15,492 bases of DNA from Synechococcales cyanobacterium. Lineage in GTDB: Bacteria > Cyanobacteriota > Cyanobacteriia > Leptolyngbyales > Leptolyngbyaceae. Both the position numbers and the translations under genes were made by a program. The notes beneath the pieces are model-generated. The model was not told the DNA's origin. It ran no database searches and saw only the letters and a program-made list of their open reading frames with translations. Shown here piece by piece: positions 1 to 15,492 of the stretch (its first letter is position 1; each line of letters starts with the position of its first letter). Location of the stretch: assembly GCA_035285565.1 (NCBI GenBank), contig JAYKGX010000423.1, positions 1 to 15,492 of the forward strand. Reading direction: 5' to 3'.

Positions 1-59
1 TCTGTTTGGTATAGCGTTTCATTGGGTTTTCCTCAAACAAGAATTACGTGGACGAGGAG

Positions 60-352: not shown

Positions 353-439
353 TCGGTTTCCAAAAACTACGCCTCGGTTTCCAAGAACTACAAAAACTAC
401 AAAAACTACTTGACAGTTCCGAAAAATGCAATGTAGTAT
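353..439 (+). promoter_or_regulatory. Plus-strand promoter (-35 TTGACA 410-415, 18 nt, -10 TAGTAT 434-439) preceded by direct repeats
   Basis: Two 18-bp direct repeats, TCGGTTTCCAAAAACTAC (353-370) and TCGGTTTCCAAGAACTAC (374-391). These are followed by AAAAACTAC at 392-400 and again at 401-409, then the canonical -35 hexamer TTGACA. The -10 region is duplicated as ATGTAGTATATGTAGTATAA. Confidence 0.35.
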
Positions 440-520
440 ATGTAGTATAAAGAAAGCAACCGGAGCAAAACCATGCTAACCAGCATACTCCCAGGCTTCC
501 CGAAAGCACCGAAGTCTAAA

Positions 521-654
521 GAGTCTCTGACCTGGTTGACTGACTAATCTCTTCGTTCATTGCGTTGATCCGCGCCGGAATGGAATTCGGCGCGAACAGA
601 CAACGAAGCGAAGGGACTTCCAAGACTTTTGTCAGTCAATCAGGTCTCTGACTG
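521..654. repeat. Long nested imperfect palindrome (cruciform, structured RNA or MITE-like element)
   Basis: Outer helix 523-544 pairs with 631-652: 16 contiguous bp with one G-U, plus 3 more bp beyond a 3x3 internal loop. An inner helix cttcgtt (551-557) pairs with aacgaag (602-608). An apical 7-bp helix CGCGCCG (571-577) pairs with CGGCGCG (588-594) around a 10-nt loop gaatggaatt. All pairings were checked by hand. Confidence 0.6.
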
Positions 655-851
655 TAAAACCCACGACTTCCGCACTTGAGTTATCCAGCTCAGCTTCCGA
701 AGCCTTTCGATCGCAGCGGCTCAACCAGTCCAAACCGCGATCGCACACTATCGAAGTCCGAGAACGCATGTTACAGATCCATCTTCTAGAGTGGCGTTAT
801 CCCTGGTAATTCGCCCGATCAGATCTTAAGTCACCGCATCTTTTCTGAACC

Positions 852-880
852 TTGACAACTGAATCATCAACACCTAAAAC
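852..880 (+). promoter_or_regulatory. Weak candidate promoter about 80 nt upstream of the tRNA cluster
   Basis: TTGACA at 852-857, a 17-nt spacer, then TAAAAC at 875-880, which is a poor -10. An alternative -10, TAAGAT at 908-913, has no good -35. Confidence 0.2.
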
Positions 881-957
881 AACACTAAACAGATACTTTT
901 GGATGAGTAAGATTTTAAATCTAAGAGCCATCTAAAATCCAAAATCCAAAATTTCCT

Positions 958-1033
958 GAGGATGTAGCTCAGCCCGGTCTAGAGCGCCTGTCTGTCGAAC
1001 AGGAGGTCGTGGGTTCAAATCCCATCATCCTCG
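958..1033 (+). tRNA. tRNA-Asp (anticodon GUC), canonical cloverleaf, no encoded CCA
   Basis: Hand fold. Acceptor GAGGATG pairs with CATCCTC (7 bp). D-stem GCTC/GAGC with loop agcccGGtcta. Anticodon stem CCTGT/ACAGG with loop CTGTCGA (anticodon GTC at 994-996). Variable region AGGTC. T-stem GTGGG/CCCAT with loop TTCAAAT. Discriminator G1033. Confidence 0.85.
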
Positions 1034-1047
1034 CCTGATCCAATTTT

Positions 1048-1120
1048 AGCCCTGTGGTGTAACTGGAAACATCCTTCACTTTGAATGAAGAGAGTCTAGG
1101 TTCGAGACCTGGCAGGGCTG
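1048..1120 (+). tRNA. tRNA-Gln-like (anticodon UUG) with A1-U72 and a weak D-stem
   Basis: Acceptor AGCCCTG pairs with CAGGGCT (7 bp). D-stem GTGT/ACAT includes a G-U. Anticodon stem CTTCA/TGAAG with loop CTTTGAA (TTG at 1081-1083, A37). Variable region AGAGT. T-stem CTAGG/CCTGG with one G-U and loop TTCGAGA. Discriminator G1120. Confidence 0.65.
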
Positions 1121-1163
1121 TCGGGGGGGAGGGATGAGATCTACCTAACCTCCTGTCGAATCT

Positions 1164-1237
1164 GCTCCTGTGGCGAAACGGAAAACGCACCTAGCTTAAA
1201 CCTAGTTTAATTGTGAGTTCGACTCTCACCAGGAGTA
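1164..1237 (+). tRNA. Non-canonical tRNA with Leu anticodon UAA but a short (class-I) variable region
   Basis: Acceptor GCTCCTG pairs with CAGGAGT (G1-U72 wobble). D-stem GCG(A)/(A)CGC with loop aacGGaaa. Anticodon stem (C)CTAG/CTAG(T) with loop CTTAAAC (TAA at 1197-1199, A37). Variable region of 6 nt, TTAATT. T-stem GTGAG/CTCAC with loop TTCGACT. Discriminator A1237. Confidence 0.55.
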
Positions 1238-1281
1238 TGGAAAATGTGAGTACAGTTCACGCGCGATCGCATTTTCCGCAA

Positions 1282-1356
1282 GCTCTCGTAGTCCAATTGG
1301 CAGAGGCACTGGTCTTAGAAACCAGGGGTTGTGGGTTCCGACTCCCACCGAGAGTA
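1282..1356 (+). tRNA. Non-canonical tRNA with Leu anticodon UAG, short variable region and an 8-nt T-loop
   Basis: Acceptor GCTCTCG pairs with CGAGAGT (G1-U72 wobble). D-stem GTC(C)/(A)GGC with loop aattGGcag. Perfect anticodon stem CTGGT/ACCAG with loop CTTAGAA (TAG at 1316-1318). Variable region GGGTT. T-stem GTGGG/CCCAC pairs only if the T-loop is 8 nt (TTCCGACT). Discriminator A1356. Confidence 0.55.
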
Positions 1357-1378
1357 CTTCGACTCCTGTCGGAGGTAT

Positions 1379-1456
1379 GGCGGAGATAGAGCTACGGTGC
1401 GCTCGGCAGTCTCATAAGCTGTCACCTACCAGGTTCAACTCCTGGCTCCGCAACCA
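1379..1456 (+). tRNA. tRNA with CAU anticodon (Met or Ile-lysidine type) with genomically encoded 3' CCA
   Basis: Acceptor GGCGGAG pairs with CTCCGCA (6 bp plus a G1/A72 mismatch). Three nucleotides (ATA) lie between the acceptor and the D-stem. D-stem GAGC/GCTC with loop tacGGtgc. Anticodon stem GCAGT/GCTGT has two G-U pairs, with loop CTCATAA (CAT at 1413-1415). Variable region of 6 nt. T-stem CCAGG/CCTGG with loop TTCAACT. Discriminator A1453 followed by CCA at 1454-1456. Confidence 0.55.
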
Positions 1457-1536
1457 ATTTGGGTGAGTTCTGAAGCATATCTTCTAAAGAAGATCGATTA
1501 GTATGATGAATAAGCTATGGTAGAGGACGATCGCCC

Positions 1537-2370
1537 ATGACCGATGTCTATGCTGCTGACTCCTACCCCACCCCCAACCGCGAATGGTGGGCACAACGTT
1601 GGATTGATGTACTAGAATCCTTTGGCTTTCGGCAACGCTTGGCCAGAGCCAGAACCTATGCGCGCGAGGGCAATGTGCTCAGTCTCAGCTTTGAGGGTGC
1701 TAAAGTACAAGCCAAAGTCCAAGGAACTGCCCCAGAACCCTACGAAGTGAACCTGCGCTTAGAACCCTTCAGCGATGAACAGTGGGGCTATATTGTGGAA
1801 TCCATGGCAGAGCGGGCGATTTTTTCTGCGAAGTTGCTTGCTGGGGAAATGCCTAACAATATTGAAGAAGTGTTTACTGCCAATGGGCTGAGCCTGTTTC
1901 CCTTCACCAAATTTGACATTCACAGCCACTGCAATTGCCCTGATCCGGTCAACCCCTGCAAACATATCGGTGCTGTCTATTATTTATTGGGCGATCGCTT
2001 TAGTGAAGATCCCTTTGTCCTGTTTCAACTGCGGGGTCGGGGCAAAACACAAATCATTGAAGCCCTGCGGCAGATGCGCCAAGTCGATGACAGTCCGCTG
2101 CCCACTTCTCCCACGCCCACTGTAACTGCCCCCATCCTAGATCTGACTCGCTTTTGGCAATACCGCGATTCCCTCGATTCTTCCCTGATGGTCATCACCC
2201 CCGCCAGTGGAGAAACGGTGCTGGATATCCTGGGCAACCTTCCCCTGCCAGAGCCTCTTGCTGCCGCCAACCCTATTCTGATGGAACAACTGCGATCGCT
2301 CTACAGCACCCTCAGCCAGCAAGCCGTCCTCCAAGCCATGGCCACCGCCTCCGACTCCGAAAATCCCTAA
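1537..2370 (+). CDS. SWIM zinc-finger domain protein
   Basis: 277-aa ORF with an ATG start. It carries a CxC-x(n)-C-x-H SWIM signature (HCNCPDPVNPCKH). The N-terminal region resembles bacterial SWIM-family proteins. The gene lies 80 nt downstream of the last tRNA. Confidence 0.75.
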   Translation: MTDVYAADSYPTPNREWWAQRWIDVLESFGFRQRLARARTYAREGNVLSLSFEGAKVQAKVQGTAPEPYEVNLRLEPFSDEQWGYIVESMAERAIFSAKLLAGEMPNNIEEVFTANGLSLFPFTKFDIHSHCNCPDPVNPCKHIGAVYYLLGDRFSEDPFVLFQLRGRGKTQIIEALRQMRQVDDSPLPTSPTPTVTAPILDLTRFWQYRDSLDSSLMVITPASGETVLDILGNLPLPEPLAAANPILMEQLRSLYSTLSQQAVLQAMATASDSENP

Positions 2371-2422
2371 CTCCACTGCAGAGACGTTCCACCGAAACAG
2401 CTCTACCCCTCCCTCTCCATCC

Positions 2423-2451
2423 AAGTATGAGTGAGAAATAATACCTATAAT
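2423..2451 (+). promoter_or_regulatory. Candidate tpiA promoter with a consensus -10 TATAAT
   Basis: TATAAT at 2446-2451, about 70 nt upstream of the tpiA start. The -35 is poor (AAGTAT at 2423-2428 with a 17-nt spacer). Confidence 0.3.
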
Positions 2452-2522
2452 GCGCAGATGATCCCCTCACAGCGTAGACTGATAAAGATCAATCTAGAAG
2501 TGTTCTGACGAACAAAGTAGTC

Positions 2523-3254
2523 GTGCGAAAGATTATTCTTGCTGGCAACTGGAAAATGTTTAAGACCCAGGCCGAAACGATGGATTTCGTGCAGGGGTTT
2601 AAGCTGTTGGTGGACGAAGCTCCCGGCGATCGGGACATCATCCTCTGCGTCCCCTTTACTGACCTCGCAATCCTCTCAAAAACCCTCCATGGCAGCCGGA
2701 TTCAAGTCGGTGCGCAAAACGTTCACTGGGCAGAATCGGGGGCTTTCACGGGGGAAATTTCTGCTGCAATGTTGCTGGAAATTGGGGTGCGCTATGTAGT
2801 GATTGGTCATAGCGAGCGTCGCCAATTCTTTGGGGAAACAGATGAAACGGTCAACCTCCGCCTCCGAGCCGCCCAAGCCGCCGGACTCACCCCCATTCTT
2901 TGCGTTGGGGAAACGAAGCAGCAGCGGGATGCCGGAGAAACGGAAGCCGTCATTTTTAACCAGTTGAAGCTGGATTTGGTCGGCGTGGACCAGTCAAATT
3001 TGGTGATTGCTTATGAACCCATTTGGGCGATCGGCACGGGAGATACCTGTGCATCGGAAGAGGCAAACCGGGTGATTGGGCTGATCCGGAGCAAGCTGAA
3101 TACGCCGGATGTGACCATTCAGTATGGTGGATCGGTCAAGTCGGAGAATATTGATGAAATCATGGCTCAGCCGGAAATTGATGGAGCCTTAGTCGGTGGC
3201 GCGAGTTTAGATCCCCTTAGCTTTGCGCGCATCGTCAACTACCAGCCCCTGTAG
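2523..3254 (+). CDS. tpiA: Triosephosphate isomerase
   Basis: 243 aa with a GTG start. Hallmark motifs are [24 protein letters not shown] and the C-terminal GGASL. The translation is collinear with TIM over its full length. Confidence 0.93.
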
Positions 3255-3284: not shown

Positions 3285-3782
3285 CTAGGAACCGATGACA
3301 TATTTCCGCCATTCTTGATTTGCACCGTTTTTAACGTATTTCGCCACCTCAAAGTAGAGACTGCTATGCGGCTTATGGGGTTGCTTGCGCAGGGGCATAG
3401 CAGCTTCTTTTGGGGTGCGATTTCCTTTCTTGACATTACAGCGGACGCAGGCGATGACGATATTTTCCCAACTGTCTTGCCCCCCACGCGATCGCGGCAC
3501 CACGTGATCCAAGGTCAGTTCATCTCCGGTGTAACCACAATATTGACAACTATGCCCATCTCGGTTGAGCAAATTCTTGCGCGTTAGGGCTATTTCTGCA
3601 TAGGGAACCCGCACATATTGGCGCAACCGAATGACAGAAGGCAAGGGGAAATCGGAATAAATAAACTTCCCATTATGCTCTAACTGTTCAGCTTTGCCTT
3701 TTAACAGAAGTACAACCGCCCTGCGCCAACTGGTGATATTCAGCGGTTCGTAGGAGGCATTGAGCACCAGAACCTTACTCAT
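3285..3782 (-). CDS. HNH endonuclease, small conserved cyanobacterial type
   Basis: HNH motif DHVVPRSRGG...W.N...AC..CN..KG. The start was chosen at the internal ATG MSKVLVLNASYEP (3782), giving 166 aa. The longest ORF reaches 3878 but begins with TTG and a non-conserved-looking leader. The gene is divergent from alr. Confidence 0.75.
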   Translation of the reverse strand: MSKVLVLNASYEPLNITSWRRAVVLLLKGKAEQLEHNGKFIYSDFPLPSVIRLRQYVRVPYAEIALTRKNLLNRDGHSCQYCGYTGDELTLDHVVPRSRGGQDSWENIVIACVRCNVKKGNRTPKEAAMPLRKQPHKPHSSLYFEVAKYVKNGANQEWRKYVIGS

Positions 3783-3995
3783 TCCGTTCAAGAAGAGGTA
3801 ACGCATTATTTCACACTTTAACACAAATTCAAACTTTCCTACGGAGTTTTGCCTTTTTCGTACTCCGGGAGACATCAATTCCCCAGAAGTTCGCTAAATT
3901 ATTGGGACGTGATTCCGGATGGGCAGACTAAATCTGCGATCGCGGATCACAGATCGTGGTGTGTGAATTCTGGTGTGTTTGACAGGAGTGGGGAT

Positions 3996-14428: not shown

Positions 14429-14875
14429 TTAACTCACTTGTCGTTCCACGGTTGCCTCTAGCGCACTGGTTAGGTAATGACCTGCCATAATTCCACTAGA
14501 GAGGTAATAACGCTGATCGGCAATGCGGTAAAGTGTTTCAAAACCACTGCGGCGCTGCTTATCCCCCAAGGCCCAATAGCGTTGAATAATGGATTCTGGA
14601 GCAATCCAGCCTTCGCCCTCTACCCGCCCTAGATCACTATGCTGTAGCACAAAGGTATAGCGCCGATCGCCCATGTCAAATCGACCACGATACTGGAAGT
14701 CAATATTGGCTCGTTCGCTCTCGGGAAACACCAACCGCATGACCATGGTAAACCACTCATCCCGGCTCCAGTTGATTAGAATTTTTCCTTTGACAGGGAT
14801 TGGGTTACCATTGCGTTCCAGCCAGCTTCCCTGCAAAAGCCATATGCCAGGTTCCATGAGAAAGGTGTGGGTCAC
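14429..14875 (-). CDS. Hypothetical protein (148 aa)
   Basis: A clean ORF with a GTG start, or an ATG at 14848 (MEPGIW...). It is co-oriented with anmK upstream and is followed by a terminator-like hairpin. It has no family-defining motif I recognise. There is a weak resemblance to small beta-barrel (lipocalin/nitrobindin-like) proteins in LLQGSWLE. Confidence 0.5.
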   Translation of the reverse strand: MTHTFLMEPGIWLLQGSWLERNGNPIPVKGKILINWSRDEWFTMVMRLVFPESERANIDFQYRGRFDMGDRRYTFVLQHSDLGRVEGEGWIAPESIIQRYWALGDKQRRSGFETLYRIADQRYYLSSGIMAGHYLTSALEATVERQVS

Positions 14876-14930: not shown

Positions 14931-15492
14931 CTATACTACACAGAGAATTTCCCCTAAAAGCACGGTTTTCATCGCCCCCGTCACTTCTGGAAGATTACCA
15001 GGAATCGCCAATTTCCGCCAGTAGGCCAGCACAGCAAAGGCGATCGCTTCTTTGAAATCTCCATTGAGGCCCACTTCATCGGTAGTGCGCACTTGGGTTT
15101 GGGGGAGATGGGCTTGAATACGATGCCACAGATAGCGATTCCGGCTGCCACCCCCACAGAGTAAGACTTCCTGGGGTAATTGGGGTAAAAACTGACGGTA
15201 GCTGTTTGCGATCGTGGCGGCGGTGAGTTCCGTGAGGGTGGCGAGGATATCGGCATCGGAGAGTTGCAGTGCCTGGGCAGCTTGTAGACAATGATTGAGG
15301 TATTCCACTCCGAAACCTTCGCGTCCGGTGGATTTGGGGGGTGATTGCTGGAAAAAGGGATGTTGTAACCAATCGGCAATTAATTCTAAGTTAGGTTTGC
15401 CACTCGCAGCCCAAGCCCCATCGCAATCGTAGGTGAACTGCCCCTGGCTGAGGTGCTGCACGGCTAGATCGATTAAGACATTACCGGGTCCG
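14931..15492 (-). CDS. anmK: Anhydro-N-acetylmuramic acid kinase, C-terminal portion (5' end beyond the window)
   Basis: The translation continues to the window edge ([18 protein letters not shown]...). Motifs LLCGGGSRN and PKSTGRE and an AnmK-like C-terminus are present. The stop is at 14931. Confidence 0.85.

Follow-up and report, generated by a model that had tools for sequence, protein, structure and literature searches.

The 15,492-nucleotide contig analysed here (the window) contains five tRNA genes according to ARAGORN, all on the plus strand and all within positions 958-1456, in the order Asp-GUC, Gln-UUG, Leu-UAA, Leu-UAG and a tRNA with the anticodon CAU. The coordinates of these genes and of the associated features are collected in the table below. 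The Rfam model RF00005 also recognized all five genes, with scores of 70.5, 56.2, 54.1, 48.5 and 34.5 bits in gene order and E-values from 4e-15 to 3e-5; the CAU tRNA was matched with relaxed filters only, yet its score lies above the 29-bit gathering score. Counted from the discriminator base, the spacers between the genes are 14, 43, 44 and 22 nt long; the ARAGORN coordinates give 11, 40, 43 and 21 nt. An earlier description made from the letters of the DNA (the sequence-only reading) had reported five plus-strand tRNA genes within 500 bp, separated by 14-44 nt, and both programs and the spacer lengths bear this out. The structural departures that it listed are present as well. A1-U72 in the Gln tRNA and G1·U72 in both Leu tRNAs can be read from the sequence and from the Rfam alignments, the 8-nt T-loop belongs to Leu-UAG, the 6-nt variable regions belong to Leu-UAA and the CAU tRNA, and the G1·A72 mismatch and the encoded CCA, as part of a templated ACCA end, belong to the CAU tRNA. 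The Asp tRNA, which it called fully canonical, nevertheless has an unusual anticodon loop, CUGUCGA (G37, A38), which is common to the Asp genes of long tRNA arrays. According to the published definition, an array unit contains at least 20 tRNA genes at a density of at least two per kb, and long arrays have up to 43 genes (PMC4758250, PMC8421152). With five genes and one gene stump in 500 bp, the density of the cluster is high, and its gene count is far below 20. A 2.4-kb Logan contig is identical to the window across 615-1700.

Table 1. Features of the tRNA cluster and its upstream region, in window coordinates.
Feature	Position	Strand	ARAGORN call	Details
Inverted TGTAGTT-type boxes	385-409	-		TGTAGTTTTTGTAGTTC on the minus strand; back-to-back with the plus-strand promoter
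Sigma-70-type promoter	410-439	+		-35 TTGACA 410-415; 18-nt spacer; -10 TAGTAT 434-439
Two exact tandem TrcR-type boxes	432-448	+		TGTAGTAT at 432-439 and 441-448
Leader	449-957	+		About 510 nt from promoter to first tRNA, versus about 80 nt in Nostocales arrays
tRNA-Asp(GUC)	958-1033	+	958-1035 Asp-gtc	Anticodon 994-996; homologue of the first gene of long arrays
tRNA-Gln(UUG)	1048-1120	+	1047-1122 Gln-ttg	Anticodon 1081-1083; A1-U72, G73
Spacer after Gln-UUG	1121-1163	+		Homologous to the Alkalinema spacer after Gln-UUG; the Alkalinema Leu-UAG gene is missing here
Class I tRNA-Leu(UAA)	1164-1237	+	1163-1238 Leu-taa	Anticodon 1197-1199; G1·U72, A73, 6-nt variable region
Hairpin in Leu-Leu spacer	1239-1277	+		GGAAAATG...CATTTTCC; contains the cyanobacterial repeat HIP1
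Class I tRNA-Leu(UAG)	1282-1356	+	1282-1357 Leu-tag	Anticodon 1316-1318; G1·U72, A73, 5-nt variable region
Leu-gene 3' stump	1358-1378	+		T-loop, 3' strand of T stem, 3' strand of acceptor stem; 21 nt
CAU-anticodon tRNA	1379-1456	+	1379-1456 Met-cat	Anticodon 1413-1415; G1·A72, A73, templated CCA
Distal array edge	1457-1510	+		Thr and later array genes absent

Upstream of the genes, a promoter scan found a sigma-70-type promoter with 10 of 12 matches. The tandem boxes overlap its -10 hexamer and the expected transcription start, and the chance expectation of such a tandem pair in the window is about 2e-5. The sequence and position of the boxes and the -10 hexamer are as published for the TrcR-protected trn promoter of Anabaena (PMC10272220), and a tandem pair of repeats that covers the -10 hexamer and start site is the rule shown to confer stress regulation (PMC8421152). 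The same hexamers and box layout are common to all eight of the Nostocales long arrays examined. Judged by its letters, the window promoter has the same TrcR operator arrangement as the trn operon of Anabaena. The inverted boxes on the minus strand may represent additional copies of the operator or belong to a divergent promoter. The promoter motif of trcR itself was not found in the window, and the contig starts only about 400 nt upstream of the promoter described here.

The leader contains a hairpin with arms at 522-553 and 622-653 (fold z = -3.6), an inverted 14-nt fragment of the Asp T arm at 658-671, and a segment at 844-867 that resembles the 3' part of the Nostoc array leader. The stretch from the promoter to the tRNAs is free of terminator-like sites, and the region 1-957 gave no plasmid match and no known RNA in Rfam. 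A weaker promoter-like site, TTGACA-N17-TAAAAC, lies nearer the first tRNA at 851-879. This site could drive unregulated expression, which would be a point against the regulated operon proposed below.

The best matches in PLSDB (blastn) are tRNA arrays on plasmids of Nostoc, Tolypothrix and Calothrix, including pCC7120delta; a Mycobacterium plasmid gave one weak single-tRNA match only. All five window genes align to specific genes of the long arrays (L-arrays), and their order is collinear with the Alkalinema and Nostoc arrays when deletions are allowed. The Asp gene is identical at 65 of 78 positions to the array Asp gene of Nostoc PCC 7524, and its T arm is identical to the T arm of the first gene of long arrays. 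Kinship with the accessory arrays of cyanobacteria, including the plasmid of PCC 7120, had been suggested by the sequence-only reading, and the plasmid matches, gene homology, gene order and promoter all support it. Closest to the window stands the long array found in Alkalinema sp. CACIAM 70d (MUGG01000063.1, locus L011), whose Gln-UUG (A1-U72), Leu and CAU genes are 94-96% identical to those of the window. The Gln-UUG genes agree at 72 of 76 positions in ARAGORN coordinates, with base pairing kept at all four differences, and the CAU tRNAs agree at 75 of 78. The window Leu-UAA is the orthologue of an Alkalinema Leu-CAA (70 of 74 positions identical), with the anticodon changed from CAA to UAA. 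The spacers after Gln-UUG and between the two Leu genes are also homologous, and the hairpin in the latter is kept in Alkalinema with compensatory changes and may be a processing signal. Between the two arrays, the tRNA parts are 93% identical and the spacers 71% (Fisher p = 1e-7). Because of this difference and because the stem differences preserve pairing, we conclude that the tRNAs have been under purifying selection. The Alkalinema array has at least 24 genes in the stretch seen, versus five in the window. Missing from the window are one of the Leu-UAG genes, the Pro to Leu-UAA block, and all that follows the CAU tRNA. Relative to this array, the window has undergone at least four gene-sized deletions, in addition to the reduction of one gene to the 21-nt stump. 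A possible remnant of an Arg-UCU anticodon arm near 1473-1503 is weak, with matches of just 10-11 nt and E-values of 0.25-1.

The trn operon of Anabaena/Nostoc sp. PCC 7120, which is repressed by TrcR and carried by pCC7120delta, likewise has Asp first, followed in the same relative order by Gln-UUG, short-arm Leu and a 78-nt CAU tRNA with templated CCA. Its promoter has TTGACA, a TAGTAT inside the first box and a second box over the start site, as in the window. However, the PCC 7120 operon has 26 genes and lies on a plasmid, whereas the window has five in a chromosomal-looking context. The PCC 7120 leader is about 80 nt and its spacers 2-8 nt, compared with 510 nt and 14-44 nt here; its tRNAs are just about 80-85% identical to those of the window; and its CAU tRNA has C1·U72 as the terminal pair instead of G1·A72. 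An HNH homing-endonuclease gene, which normally lies just upstream of arrays of this lineage, including that of PCC 7120, is absent upstream of the window array. The tRNA clusters of Gordonia phage Phendrix and Lactobacillus phage Iacchus contain 74-75-nt short-arm tRNA-Leu that align over their full length to the window Leu-UAG at about 81-82%, and 78-nt initiator-type CAU tRNAs with a 1:72 mismatch and templated CCA. The phage Leu tRNAs differ in having G1-C72 instead of G1·U72, and the phage clusters belong to other hosts, lack TrcR boxes and have phage genes scattered among the tRNAs. The array units of Mycobacterium and Acidithiobacillus are likewise horizontally spread, supernumerary and dense, with doubtful or conditional expression (PMC4758250, PMC5966550), but by definition they have at least 20 genes, and their regulation may be different. 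With its kinship to the long arrays and the same stress-repressor promoter signature, the cluster is a small variant of a known array system and not a new kind of thing.

The two tRNAs with Leu anticodons lack the long variable arm. At 74-75 nt they are class I molecules, and neither has the variable-arm stem-loop of more than 10 nt that defines a canonical class II tRNA-Leu. According to a current review, tRNA-Leu has the long variable arm in every organism, with the exception of animal mitochondria. The arm is missing, however, in all 47 Leu genes of the cyanobacterial array loci examined. An alignment of 38 distinct short-arm Leu genes has 97.7% of its cells paired, with compensatory change in 18 of 21 pairs. 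The identity set of Escherichia coli LeuRS comprises A73, A14, A15-U48, G18G19 and D/T-loop tertiary pairs (PMC9976931), and the short-arm Leu tRNAs possess the LeuRS set, with A73, U48 and a 3-bp D stem with a AAUUGGCAGA- or AAACGGAAAA-type loop. The missing arm in array Leu tRNAs is not mentioned in PMC8421152 or PMC4758250, and an earlier description elsewhere is possible. Each of the window's two Leu tRNAs also has peculiarities of its own. Leu-UAA carries a C27·U43 mismatch. Leu-UAG is a mosaic, with a 5' half like the Alkalinema Leu-UAG gene at 573 and anticodon and T arms like Nostoc Leu-UAG, and an extra C at 1338/1339, absent from all other family members, gives it the 8-nt T-loop UUCCGACU (1336-1343). 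The extra C may disturb the U54:A58 and G19:C56 contacts, and this tRNA is probably impaired.

In the CAU tRNA, the connector from acceptor to D stem has an extra base and thus three bases, AUA; the molecule also has a GAGC/GCUC D stem (A11:U24), a U31·G39 pair and a 6-nt variable region. The pairing of its family is well preserved: 94.8% of the alignment is paired, a value reached by none of 500 shuffles. Compared with a bacterial initiator, it has the mismatch at 1:72, and within the family 11 of 12 distinct members are mismatched at 1:72 or 2:71. It also combines A11:U24 with a templated CCA; all 12 aligned family members encode CCA and share the same GAGC/GCUC stem, and a templated CCA is typical of cyanobacterial initiator genes (PMC5143459, CCA statistics). 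The three G-C pairs of the initiator anticodon stem are absent, as the window has A29-U41, G30-C40 and U31·G39, the last of which is invariant in the CAU family. These features make the tRNA initiator-like, and we regard it as a candidate initiator, elongator Met or Ile2 tRNA. The stump immediately upstream is explained by the long arrays. In those that have both genes, the parent Leu gene of the stump directly precedes the CAU tRNA, and positions 1358-1457 align to nine arrays as a single 100-nt block. The stump is a deletion scar.

The neighbouring genes, which include tpiA, alr, tatC, clpP and other core genes, give the cluster a chromosomal-looking context. The nearest relative, with a SWIM protein that is 83% identical, has only positions 1511-3244 in common with the window; its homology upstream of the SWIM gene starts at 1511, and no tRNAs occur at its SWIM-tpiA locus. 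Because this locus is free of tRNAs in the relative, we consider the array to be probably an accessory insertion, and its absence from the homologous site fits acquisition. Positions 230-245 resemble the 3' end of the Asp gene over 16 nt; this likeness, considered as a duplication of the integration site, is at chance level. No remnant of an HNH gene of the all8564 type was found in 1-957 by tblastn. The only HNH gene of the window, at 3285-3806 on the minus strand, is not the array-linked one but the pan-cyanobacterial core paralogue: its identity is 39% to all8564, as against 77-91% to chromosomal genes from different cyanobacterial orders. As for the decoding capacity of the cluster, the possibility of alternative decoding raised in the sequence-only reading is not indicated, as the anticodons are standard sense anticodons. 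A supply of tRNAs for rare codons was also considered and rejected for want of a clear pattern: the retained anticodons read both common and less common codons, and in the window genes CAA makes up 60% of Gln codons and GAT 79% of Asp codons, with CUA at 8% and UUA at 13% of Leu codons.

We consider it probable that the cluster is a deletion derivative of an L-array, or trn operon, inserted by SWIM-tpiA in a filamentous Alkalinema-related cyanobacterium (metagenome-assembled, with the label 'Synechococcales bacterium'), and that it serves as a TrcR-repressed, stress-inducible, supplementary or backup tRNA operon that is partly eroded. According to this proposal, the ribbon-helix-helix repressor TrcR would bind the tandem boxes over the promoter and keep the operon silent until impaired translation lifted the repression. 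A transcript of about 1 kb, comprising the 510-nt leader and the five tRNAs, would then be cut by RNase P and 3' processing enzymes; four of the tRNAs would have to receive their CCA, which the fifth gene encodes. The expected products are Asp, Gln, two short-arm Leu tRNAs with the bacterial LeuRS identity set, and the initiator-like CAU tRNA, which together would supplement or back up the housekeeping pool in stress. Of the 26 array tRNAs of Anabaena, 23 are charged in vivo, and the array is induced by translational stress; furthermore, it favours survival under such stress in competition experiments (PMC8421152). Several features count against the proposal, namely the promoter placed 510 nt upstream, the strongly folding leader hairpin and the lack of an HNH gene, as well as the unique T-loop of Leu-UAG and the C27·U43 mismatch of Leu-UAA.

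Those same features could mean that a long array was acquired and then eroded by deletions, leaving a non-functional or barely expressed remnant that is drifting to loss. The gene-sized deletions and the stump agree with such an inert relic, and so do the leader, which has grown to 510 nt and holds a hairpin insert and an inverted tRNA fragment, the two flawed Leu tRNAs, the missing HNH gene and the failure to find another example of the reduced form. In addition, the published view is that arrays are usually disadvantageous when newly acquired and are kept silent (PMC8421152). However, the promoter has kept its two hexamers, and the operator its two boxes, intact and exact; full cloverleaves are found in four of the five tRNAs; the tRNAs are far more conserved than the spacers, with their pairs preserved; and even the change from CAA to UAA gives another valid Leu anticodon. 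We rate an inert relic as possible but less likely. The sequence-only reading had offered a miniature or decayed array, and the deletions and the stump agree with this. Most of the non-canonical features, however, are not decay, because they are conserved in the array lineage and held by compensatory changes; decay in the true sense shows in the 8-nt T-loop, in the gene stump and in the lengthened leader.

The conserved departures have also to be weighed under a different function, in which the altered structures (Leu without the long arm, the CAU tRNA with its mismatched acceptor end, Asp with G37) would help the tRNAs to evade tRNA-cutting toxins or defence nucleases that are induced by stress or phage infection, or to soak them up, and would not serve general supply. 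The short-arm Leu type is common to the array lineage and the Phendrix and Iacchus clusters, and a viral contig of 146 kb contains the CAU tRNA type. Evasion of tRNA nucleases has been suggested for phage tRNAs (PMC10264068), and cutting of the tRNA-Tyr variable loop by a defence nuclease is reported (PMC13096335). Anabaena shows induction of VapC genes and cleavage of array tRNAs, and a 'sponge' role has been put forward (PMC8421152); moreover, the codon usage of the window provides no rare-codon rationale for the retained set. Nevertheless, the window has no array-linked nuclease or toxin gene, and the retained subset could simply mirror where the deletions fell. We regard this backup or decoy role as rather improbable. 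About equally speculative is the idea that the long-array and phage lineage maintains a conserved, functional family of short-arm Leu tRNAs together with an obligatorily acceptor-mismatched CAU tRNA, and that the mini-array kept these, behind an intact stress operator, as a tRNase-immune minimal emergency decoding kit and not as a random leftover. An ordinary housekeeping operon, built by local accretion for the normal supply of Asp, Gln, Leu and Met tRNAs, is largely refuted and very improbable. The chromosomal-looking context would suit it, and small tRNA clusters do exist in cyanobacteria (PMC8421152). However, all genes are homologous to long-array genes and stand in array order, with array-type spacers and the stump; the Leu genes lack the long arm; repressor boxes lie in the promoter; and the array is absent from the corresponding site of the nearest relative. 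Furthermore, an A-array of this kind is often periodic, but no periodic pattern occurs among the five genes, whose pairwise alignment scores are low.

The usefulness of such arrays has been shown only recently, through stress induction and TrcR repression in Anabaena. The present case extends the lineage and its TrcR-type operator outside the Nostocales, to a chromosomal-looking setting in an Alkalinema-related filamentous cyanobacterium. It indicates that arrays can shrink to a few genes with the regulatory module intact, and it represents a natural experiment on which tRNAs persist. For tRNA annotation, traits that look like those of pseudogenes (short-arm Leu, G1·U72, a mismatched acceptor end) are lineage traits under compensatory evolution, and the short-arm Leu tRNAs bear on the textbook claim that tRNA-Leu has a long arm everywhere outside animal mitochondria. 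Should the reduced operon be expressed and its tRNAs charged, it would be a compact test system for array tRNA function.

Searches of the genome, metagenome and viral collections turned up no second copy of the five-gene mini-array, so selection on the reduced form itself is at most a conjecture, a further point against the proposed operon. A scan of the genome collection with a CAU-tRNA motif returned ten long arrays, and a scan of the viral collection with a Gln motif returned no match. In the metagenomes, a motif common to the window and Alkalinema had no match, and a broader motif matched eight contigs, which contain arrays, rearranged arrays and stand-alone CAU tRNAs, none in the five-gene layout. 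No TrcR boxes lie upstream of the stand-alone CAU tRNAs on these contigs, at least two of which (L023 and L027) have a consensus-like sigma-70 promoter.

As the sequence-only reading had proposed, the window holds five clustered tRNA genes: ARAGORN, run over its full length, called exactly that number, all of them plus-strand and packed into 500 bases, and each exceeds the gathering score of the Rfam tRNA model (29 bits). Both the sequence itself and the Rfam alignments also show the departures that this reading listed: A1-U72 in the Gln tRNA, G1·U72 with A73 in both Leu-anticodon tRNAs, the 8-nt T-loop UUCCGACU of Leu-UAG (1336-1343), the 6-nt variable regions of Leu-UAA and the CAU tRNA, and, in the CAU tRNA, G1·A72 and an encoded CCA. 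The Asp-GUC gene, described as fully canonical, is indeed called as a tRNA, but its anticodon loop is unusual (CUGUCGA, with G37). The largest anomaly had gone unnamed: both Leu-anticodon tRNAs are 74-75 nt long and lack the long variable arm.

Coordinates of features in the window and in the comparison loci (L-numbers)
Feature	Locus	Position	Strand	Remark
tRNA-Asp-GUC	window	958-1035	+	ARAGORN; Rfam tRNA model 70.5 bits
tRNA-Gln-UUG	window	1047-1122	+	ARAGORN; Rfam tRNA model 56.2 bits
tRNA-Leu-UAA	window	1163-1238	+	ARAGORN; Rfam tRNA model 54.1 bits
tRNA-Leu-UAG	window	1282-1357	+	ARAGORN; Rfam tRNA model 48.5 bits
CAU tRNA	window	1379-1456	+	ARAGORN; Rfam 34.5 bits, permissive filters only
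Leu gene stump	window	1358-1378		T-loop and 3′ strands, 21 bases
Exact TGTAGTAT boxes	window	432-439; 441-448		two copies
HNH endonuclease gene	window	3285-3806	-	1.9 kb from array
Stand-alone CAU tRNA	L023	743-820
Stand-alone CAU tRNA	L027	3076-3153
Stand-alone CAU tRNA	L026	2228-2305	-
Array-type CAU tRNA	L031	1303-1380
Phage short-arm Leu genes	L021	2504-2578; 3276-3350
Phage short-arm Leu gene	L022	1501-1574
CUA tRNA-like gene	L003	2862-2933
CUA tRNA-like gene	L004	3138-3209
CUA tRNA-like gene	L006	5952-6023
CUA tRNA-like gene	L008	2596-2667
CUA tRNA-like gene	L013	1967-2038
Opposite-strand tandem-box site	L002	near 1368	-
Opposite-strand tandem-box site	L003	near 1484	-
Opposite-strand tandem-box site	L004	near 1618	-	present in others also

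A blastn search of PLSDB with positions 940-1470 returned tRNA arrays on plasmids of Nostoc, Tolypothrix and Calothrix, including pCC7120delta, which belong to the long arrays (L-arrays) already described (PMC8421152); three of the matched loci carry 20-29 tRNA genes each (ARAGORN), with an HNH endonuclease gene in front. Each of the five window genes aligns to one particular array gene, and the suspected kinship with accessory cyanobacterial arrays, the PCC 7120 plasmid included, is thus supported by search and gene-by-gene alignment. The Asp gene corresponds to the first array gene, with the CUGUCGA loop in common and an identical T arm, and the Gln gene to the array Gln-UUG, whose U1-A72 is flipped to A1-U72. 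The Leu pair corresponds to array Leu genes of 75-78 nt, all ending in ...GUA (G71, U72, A73), and the CAU tRNA to a 78-nt array gene that shares its three-base AUA connector, GAGC/GCUC D stem and ACCA end. The D-arm motif of the CAU tRNA, scanned across a genome collection, found ten loci, every one a long array and none of them from the host. Alkalinema sp. CACIAM 70d carries the most closely related array, with identities of 72/76 for Gln, 70/74 between the window Leu-UAA and its Leu-CAA, and 75/78 for the CAU tRNA. The mini-array departs from the L-array definition in two defining features, length and a linked HNH gene.

Deletions were read from a segment-by-segment alignment with the Alkalinema CACIAM 70d array. 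The spacer 3′ of Gln is homologous in Alkalinema, and the gene that follows there, a Leu-UAG, is absent from the window. The Alkalinema Leu-CAA, spacer and second Leu-UAG have collinear counterparts in the window, namely Leu-UAA, the spacer after it and the 5′ half of Leu-UAG, the anticodon CAA of Alkalinema having changed to UAA in the window; the remainder of the window Leu-UAG resembles Nostoc Leu-UAG genes, and we therefore consider this gene a mosaic. A stump of a Leu gene lies between it and the CAU tRNA. In long arrays that have both genes, Leu-UAA directly precedes the CAU tRNA, and positions 1358-1457 align to nine arrays as a single block. The window has none of the array genes that lie 3′ of the CAU tRNA (Thr, Gly, Val, Arg, Ala, His, Ser). 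The segment alignment, the stump and the missing genes therefore indicate that at least four deletions have reduced a longer array to the five genes. Identity to Alkalinema is 93% in the tRNA parts versus 71% in the spacers (Fisher p = 1e-7), and stem substitutions preserve pairing (in Gln, for example, C3-G70 versus U3-A70 and G·U versus A-U). The spacer between the window Leu genes (1239-1277; 527-566 in the Alkalinema locus, L011) forms a hairpin with a HIP1 repeat, which is kept in Alkalinema by compensatory changes (GGAAAATG/CATTTTCC against GGGAAGTG/TACTTCCC); Alkalinema spacers hold more small palindromes immediately after tRNA 3′ ends.

The view that the non-canonical features represent decay survives only in part. 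Compared across loci, the odd features appear to be mostly lineage traits of the arrays, including the short-arm Leu tRNAs, position 72 and the CAU mismatches, and damage is likely for those found only in the window: the extra C in the Leu-UAG T-loop, C27·U43 in Leu-UAA, the stump and the long leader. All 47 Leu genes of the examined cyanobacterial array loci (L002-L014, L025, L029 and L030; 38 distinct sequences) are 74-81 nt long and lack the long variable arm. In the 38 sequences, 97.7% of cloverleaf cells are paired, compensatory changes occur in 18 of 21 pairs, position 72 is U in 36, giving G1·U72 or A1-U72, and A73 is invariant. As in ordinary tRNA-Leu, the array Leu genes have a D stem of 3 bp and a D loop of the AAUUGGYAGA type; long arms are retained by the Ser and Tyr genes that these arrays carry. 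Bacterial LeuRS requires A73 and D/T-loop tertiary contacts but can do without the long arm, and it still accepts tRNA-Leu variants that are truncated (PMC9976931). Therefore, array Leu genes that lack the arm but possess A73 and a Leu-type D arm are consistent with LeuRS identity rules. A 2023 review places the long arm in the tRNA-Leu of all organisms except animal mitochondria (PMC9976931), and a text search of two array papers (PMC8421152, PMC4758250) found no mention of a short-arm Leu exception. Comparable Leu genes of 74-75 nt are also carried by Gordonia phage Phendrix and Lactobacillus phage Iacchus.

The 12 distinct sequences of the CAU family are all 78 nt long with a templated CCA, and they are 94.8% paired with 10 compensatory pairs, which none of 500 shuffles reached; unpaired cells cluster at the acceptor end, with a mismatch at 1:72 or 2:71 in 11 of the 12. 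CCA templating in cyanobacteria is found mainly in initiator genes (PMC5143459). Because of A11:U24 and the templated CCA with an acceptor mismatch, the CAU tRNA looks initiator-like; against this, the three G-C pairs that initiators have in the anticodon stem are missing from the family, and U31·G39 is invariant. Three metagenome contigs (L023, L026 and L027) carry the array type as a lone gene, again 78 nt long with the AUA connector, mismatched acceptor end and templated CCA. On L023 and L027, which are HIP1-rich and therefore taken as cyanobacterial, it adjoins a T5orf172-like ORF and is preceded by a consensus-like sigma-70 promoter, where no boxes for TrcR, the ribbon-helix-helix repressor of the Anabaena trn operon, were found. 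A viral contig of 146 kb and 35% G+C contains a related tRNA that shares this D arm. In several Nostoc arrays, the slot of the PCC 7120 CGA 'Ser' gene (71 nt, without a long arm) is filled by a tRNA-like gene that ARAGORN labels 'Pyl' and whose anticodon, CUA, is amber-reading; this occupant is probably a pseudogene, given its poor acceptor stem.

The surrounding genes are core genes (SWIM-type zinc-finger, tpiA, alr, SPFH, tatC, Sua5/YrdC, clpP, a Ser/Thr kinase and an anmK fragment), and the cyanobacterial repeat GCGATCGC occurs 22 times in the window. An independent Logan assembly matches 615-1700 at 100%, a stretch that spans the array-SWIM junction. For SWIM, the closest homologue (83% identity at the amino-acid level) lies on two JGI metagenome contigs, whose DNA similarity to the window extends from 1511 to 3244 only, that is, over SWIM and tpiA; a different gene lies 108 bases upstream of it, and no tRNA was found within 20 kb. 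No array adjoins the SWIM gene in Alkalinema FACHB-956 or Phormidesmis. Judged from these sequence comparisons, the mini-array is probably an accessory insertion. The HNH gene of the window was ruled out as an array-linked endonuclease: only 39% identical to all8564, it is a highly conserved pan-cyanobacterial core paralogue (77-91% identity across orders; 89% to the Alkalinema sp. FACHB-956 counterpart), with no TrcR boxes upstream. No HNH gene or remnant was found upstream of the mini-array, where the contig ends only about 400 nt from the promoter. At 1-33 (minus strand), a gene apparently starts near 33 and runs off that end (MKRYTKQ...).

In a simple promoter scan, a single strong site emerged on the plus strand, where TTGACA at 410 is separated from TAGTAT at 434-439 by 18 nt, with two exact TGTAGTAT boxes in tandem; the chance expectation for such a pair in the window is about 2e-5. 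In Anabaena, the trn promoter has a TGTAGTAT that overlaps its TAGTAT -10 box and is protected by TrcR (PMC10272220), and two tandem repeats over the -10 box and start site suffice for stress regulation (PMC8421152). All eight Nostocales arrays whose 5′ end was examined have TTGACA, 17-18 nt ending in TGTAGTAT, 3 nt and TGTAGTGA. Their first tRNA lies about 80 bases downstream of the promoter, whereas in the window the distance is 510, with no terminator-like site between promoter and tRNAs in the scan. The leader contains an imperfect hairpin (arms 522-553 and 622-653, 32 nt each, 78% complementary, with a 68-nt loop region) that folds far better than shuffled sequence (z = -3.6) and that had no database counterpart; an inserted palindrome is one possibility, an element for processing or stability another. 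The Logan contig begins within the 3′ half of this hairpin. The leader also holds an inverted 14-base piece of the Asp T arm, and 844-867 resembles the end of the Nostoc leader (20/24 bases, beating all 200 shuffles in one of three comparisons). The length, the hairpin, the inverted fragment and this similarity together suggest an insertion into the leader.

The best reading of our analysis is that the mini-array would operate like the Anabaena trn operon, as a TrcR-repressed, stress-inducible operon giving a small extra tRNA set: TrcR would bind the tandem boxes, stress would induce transcription, and the tRNAs would be processed and charged. In Anabaena, 23 of the 26 tRNAs of the array are aminoacylated in vivo, and in long-term competition experiments the array favours survival under translational stress (PMC8421152). 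The main rival is that the five genes are an inert relic; however, the operator and promoter are intact and the substitutions are pair-preserving, and we consider this reading rather unlikely. A role as a nuclease-resistant backup or decoy is possible, in line with the phage links of the array tRNA types and with published proposals (PMC10264068; PMC8421152). That a cluster so closely matched to L-array genes is a housekeeping operon is very unlikely. Supply of tRNAs for rare codons was rejected, since the codon usage of the window's genes offers no rationale for it.

The L-array family, its regulator TrcR and its stress role are already published. A five-gene chromosomal derivative that has kept the operator architecture appears to be new, as do its occurrence in an Alkalinema-related cyanobacterium and the demonstration that the peculiar tRNA features are conserved lineage traits.

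Similar boxes occur at other sites. Inverted TGTAGTT-type boxes (385-409, minus strand) stand back-to-back with the array promoter. Seven Nostocales loci have a further tandem-box site (TGTAGTATTTGTAATTA), located some 1 kb upstream of the trn promoter and on the other strand, which suggests another TrcR-controlled transcript there. A third exact TGTAGTAT in the window, a single box at 14933-14940 (minus strand) at the extreme end of the anmK fragment, sits 58 nt upstream of a 148-aa ORF without a Pfam match (14429-14875, minus strand); it could mark a member of the TrcR regulon or be a chance occurrence, about 0.5 exact copies being expected per window.
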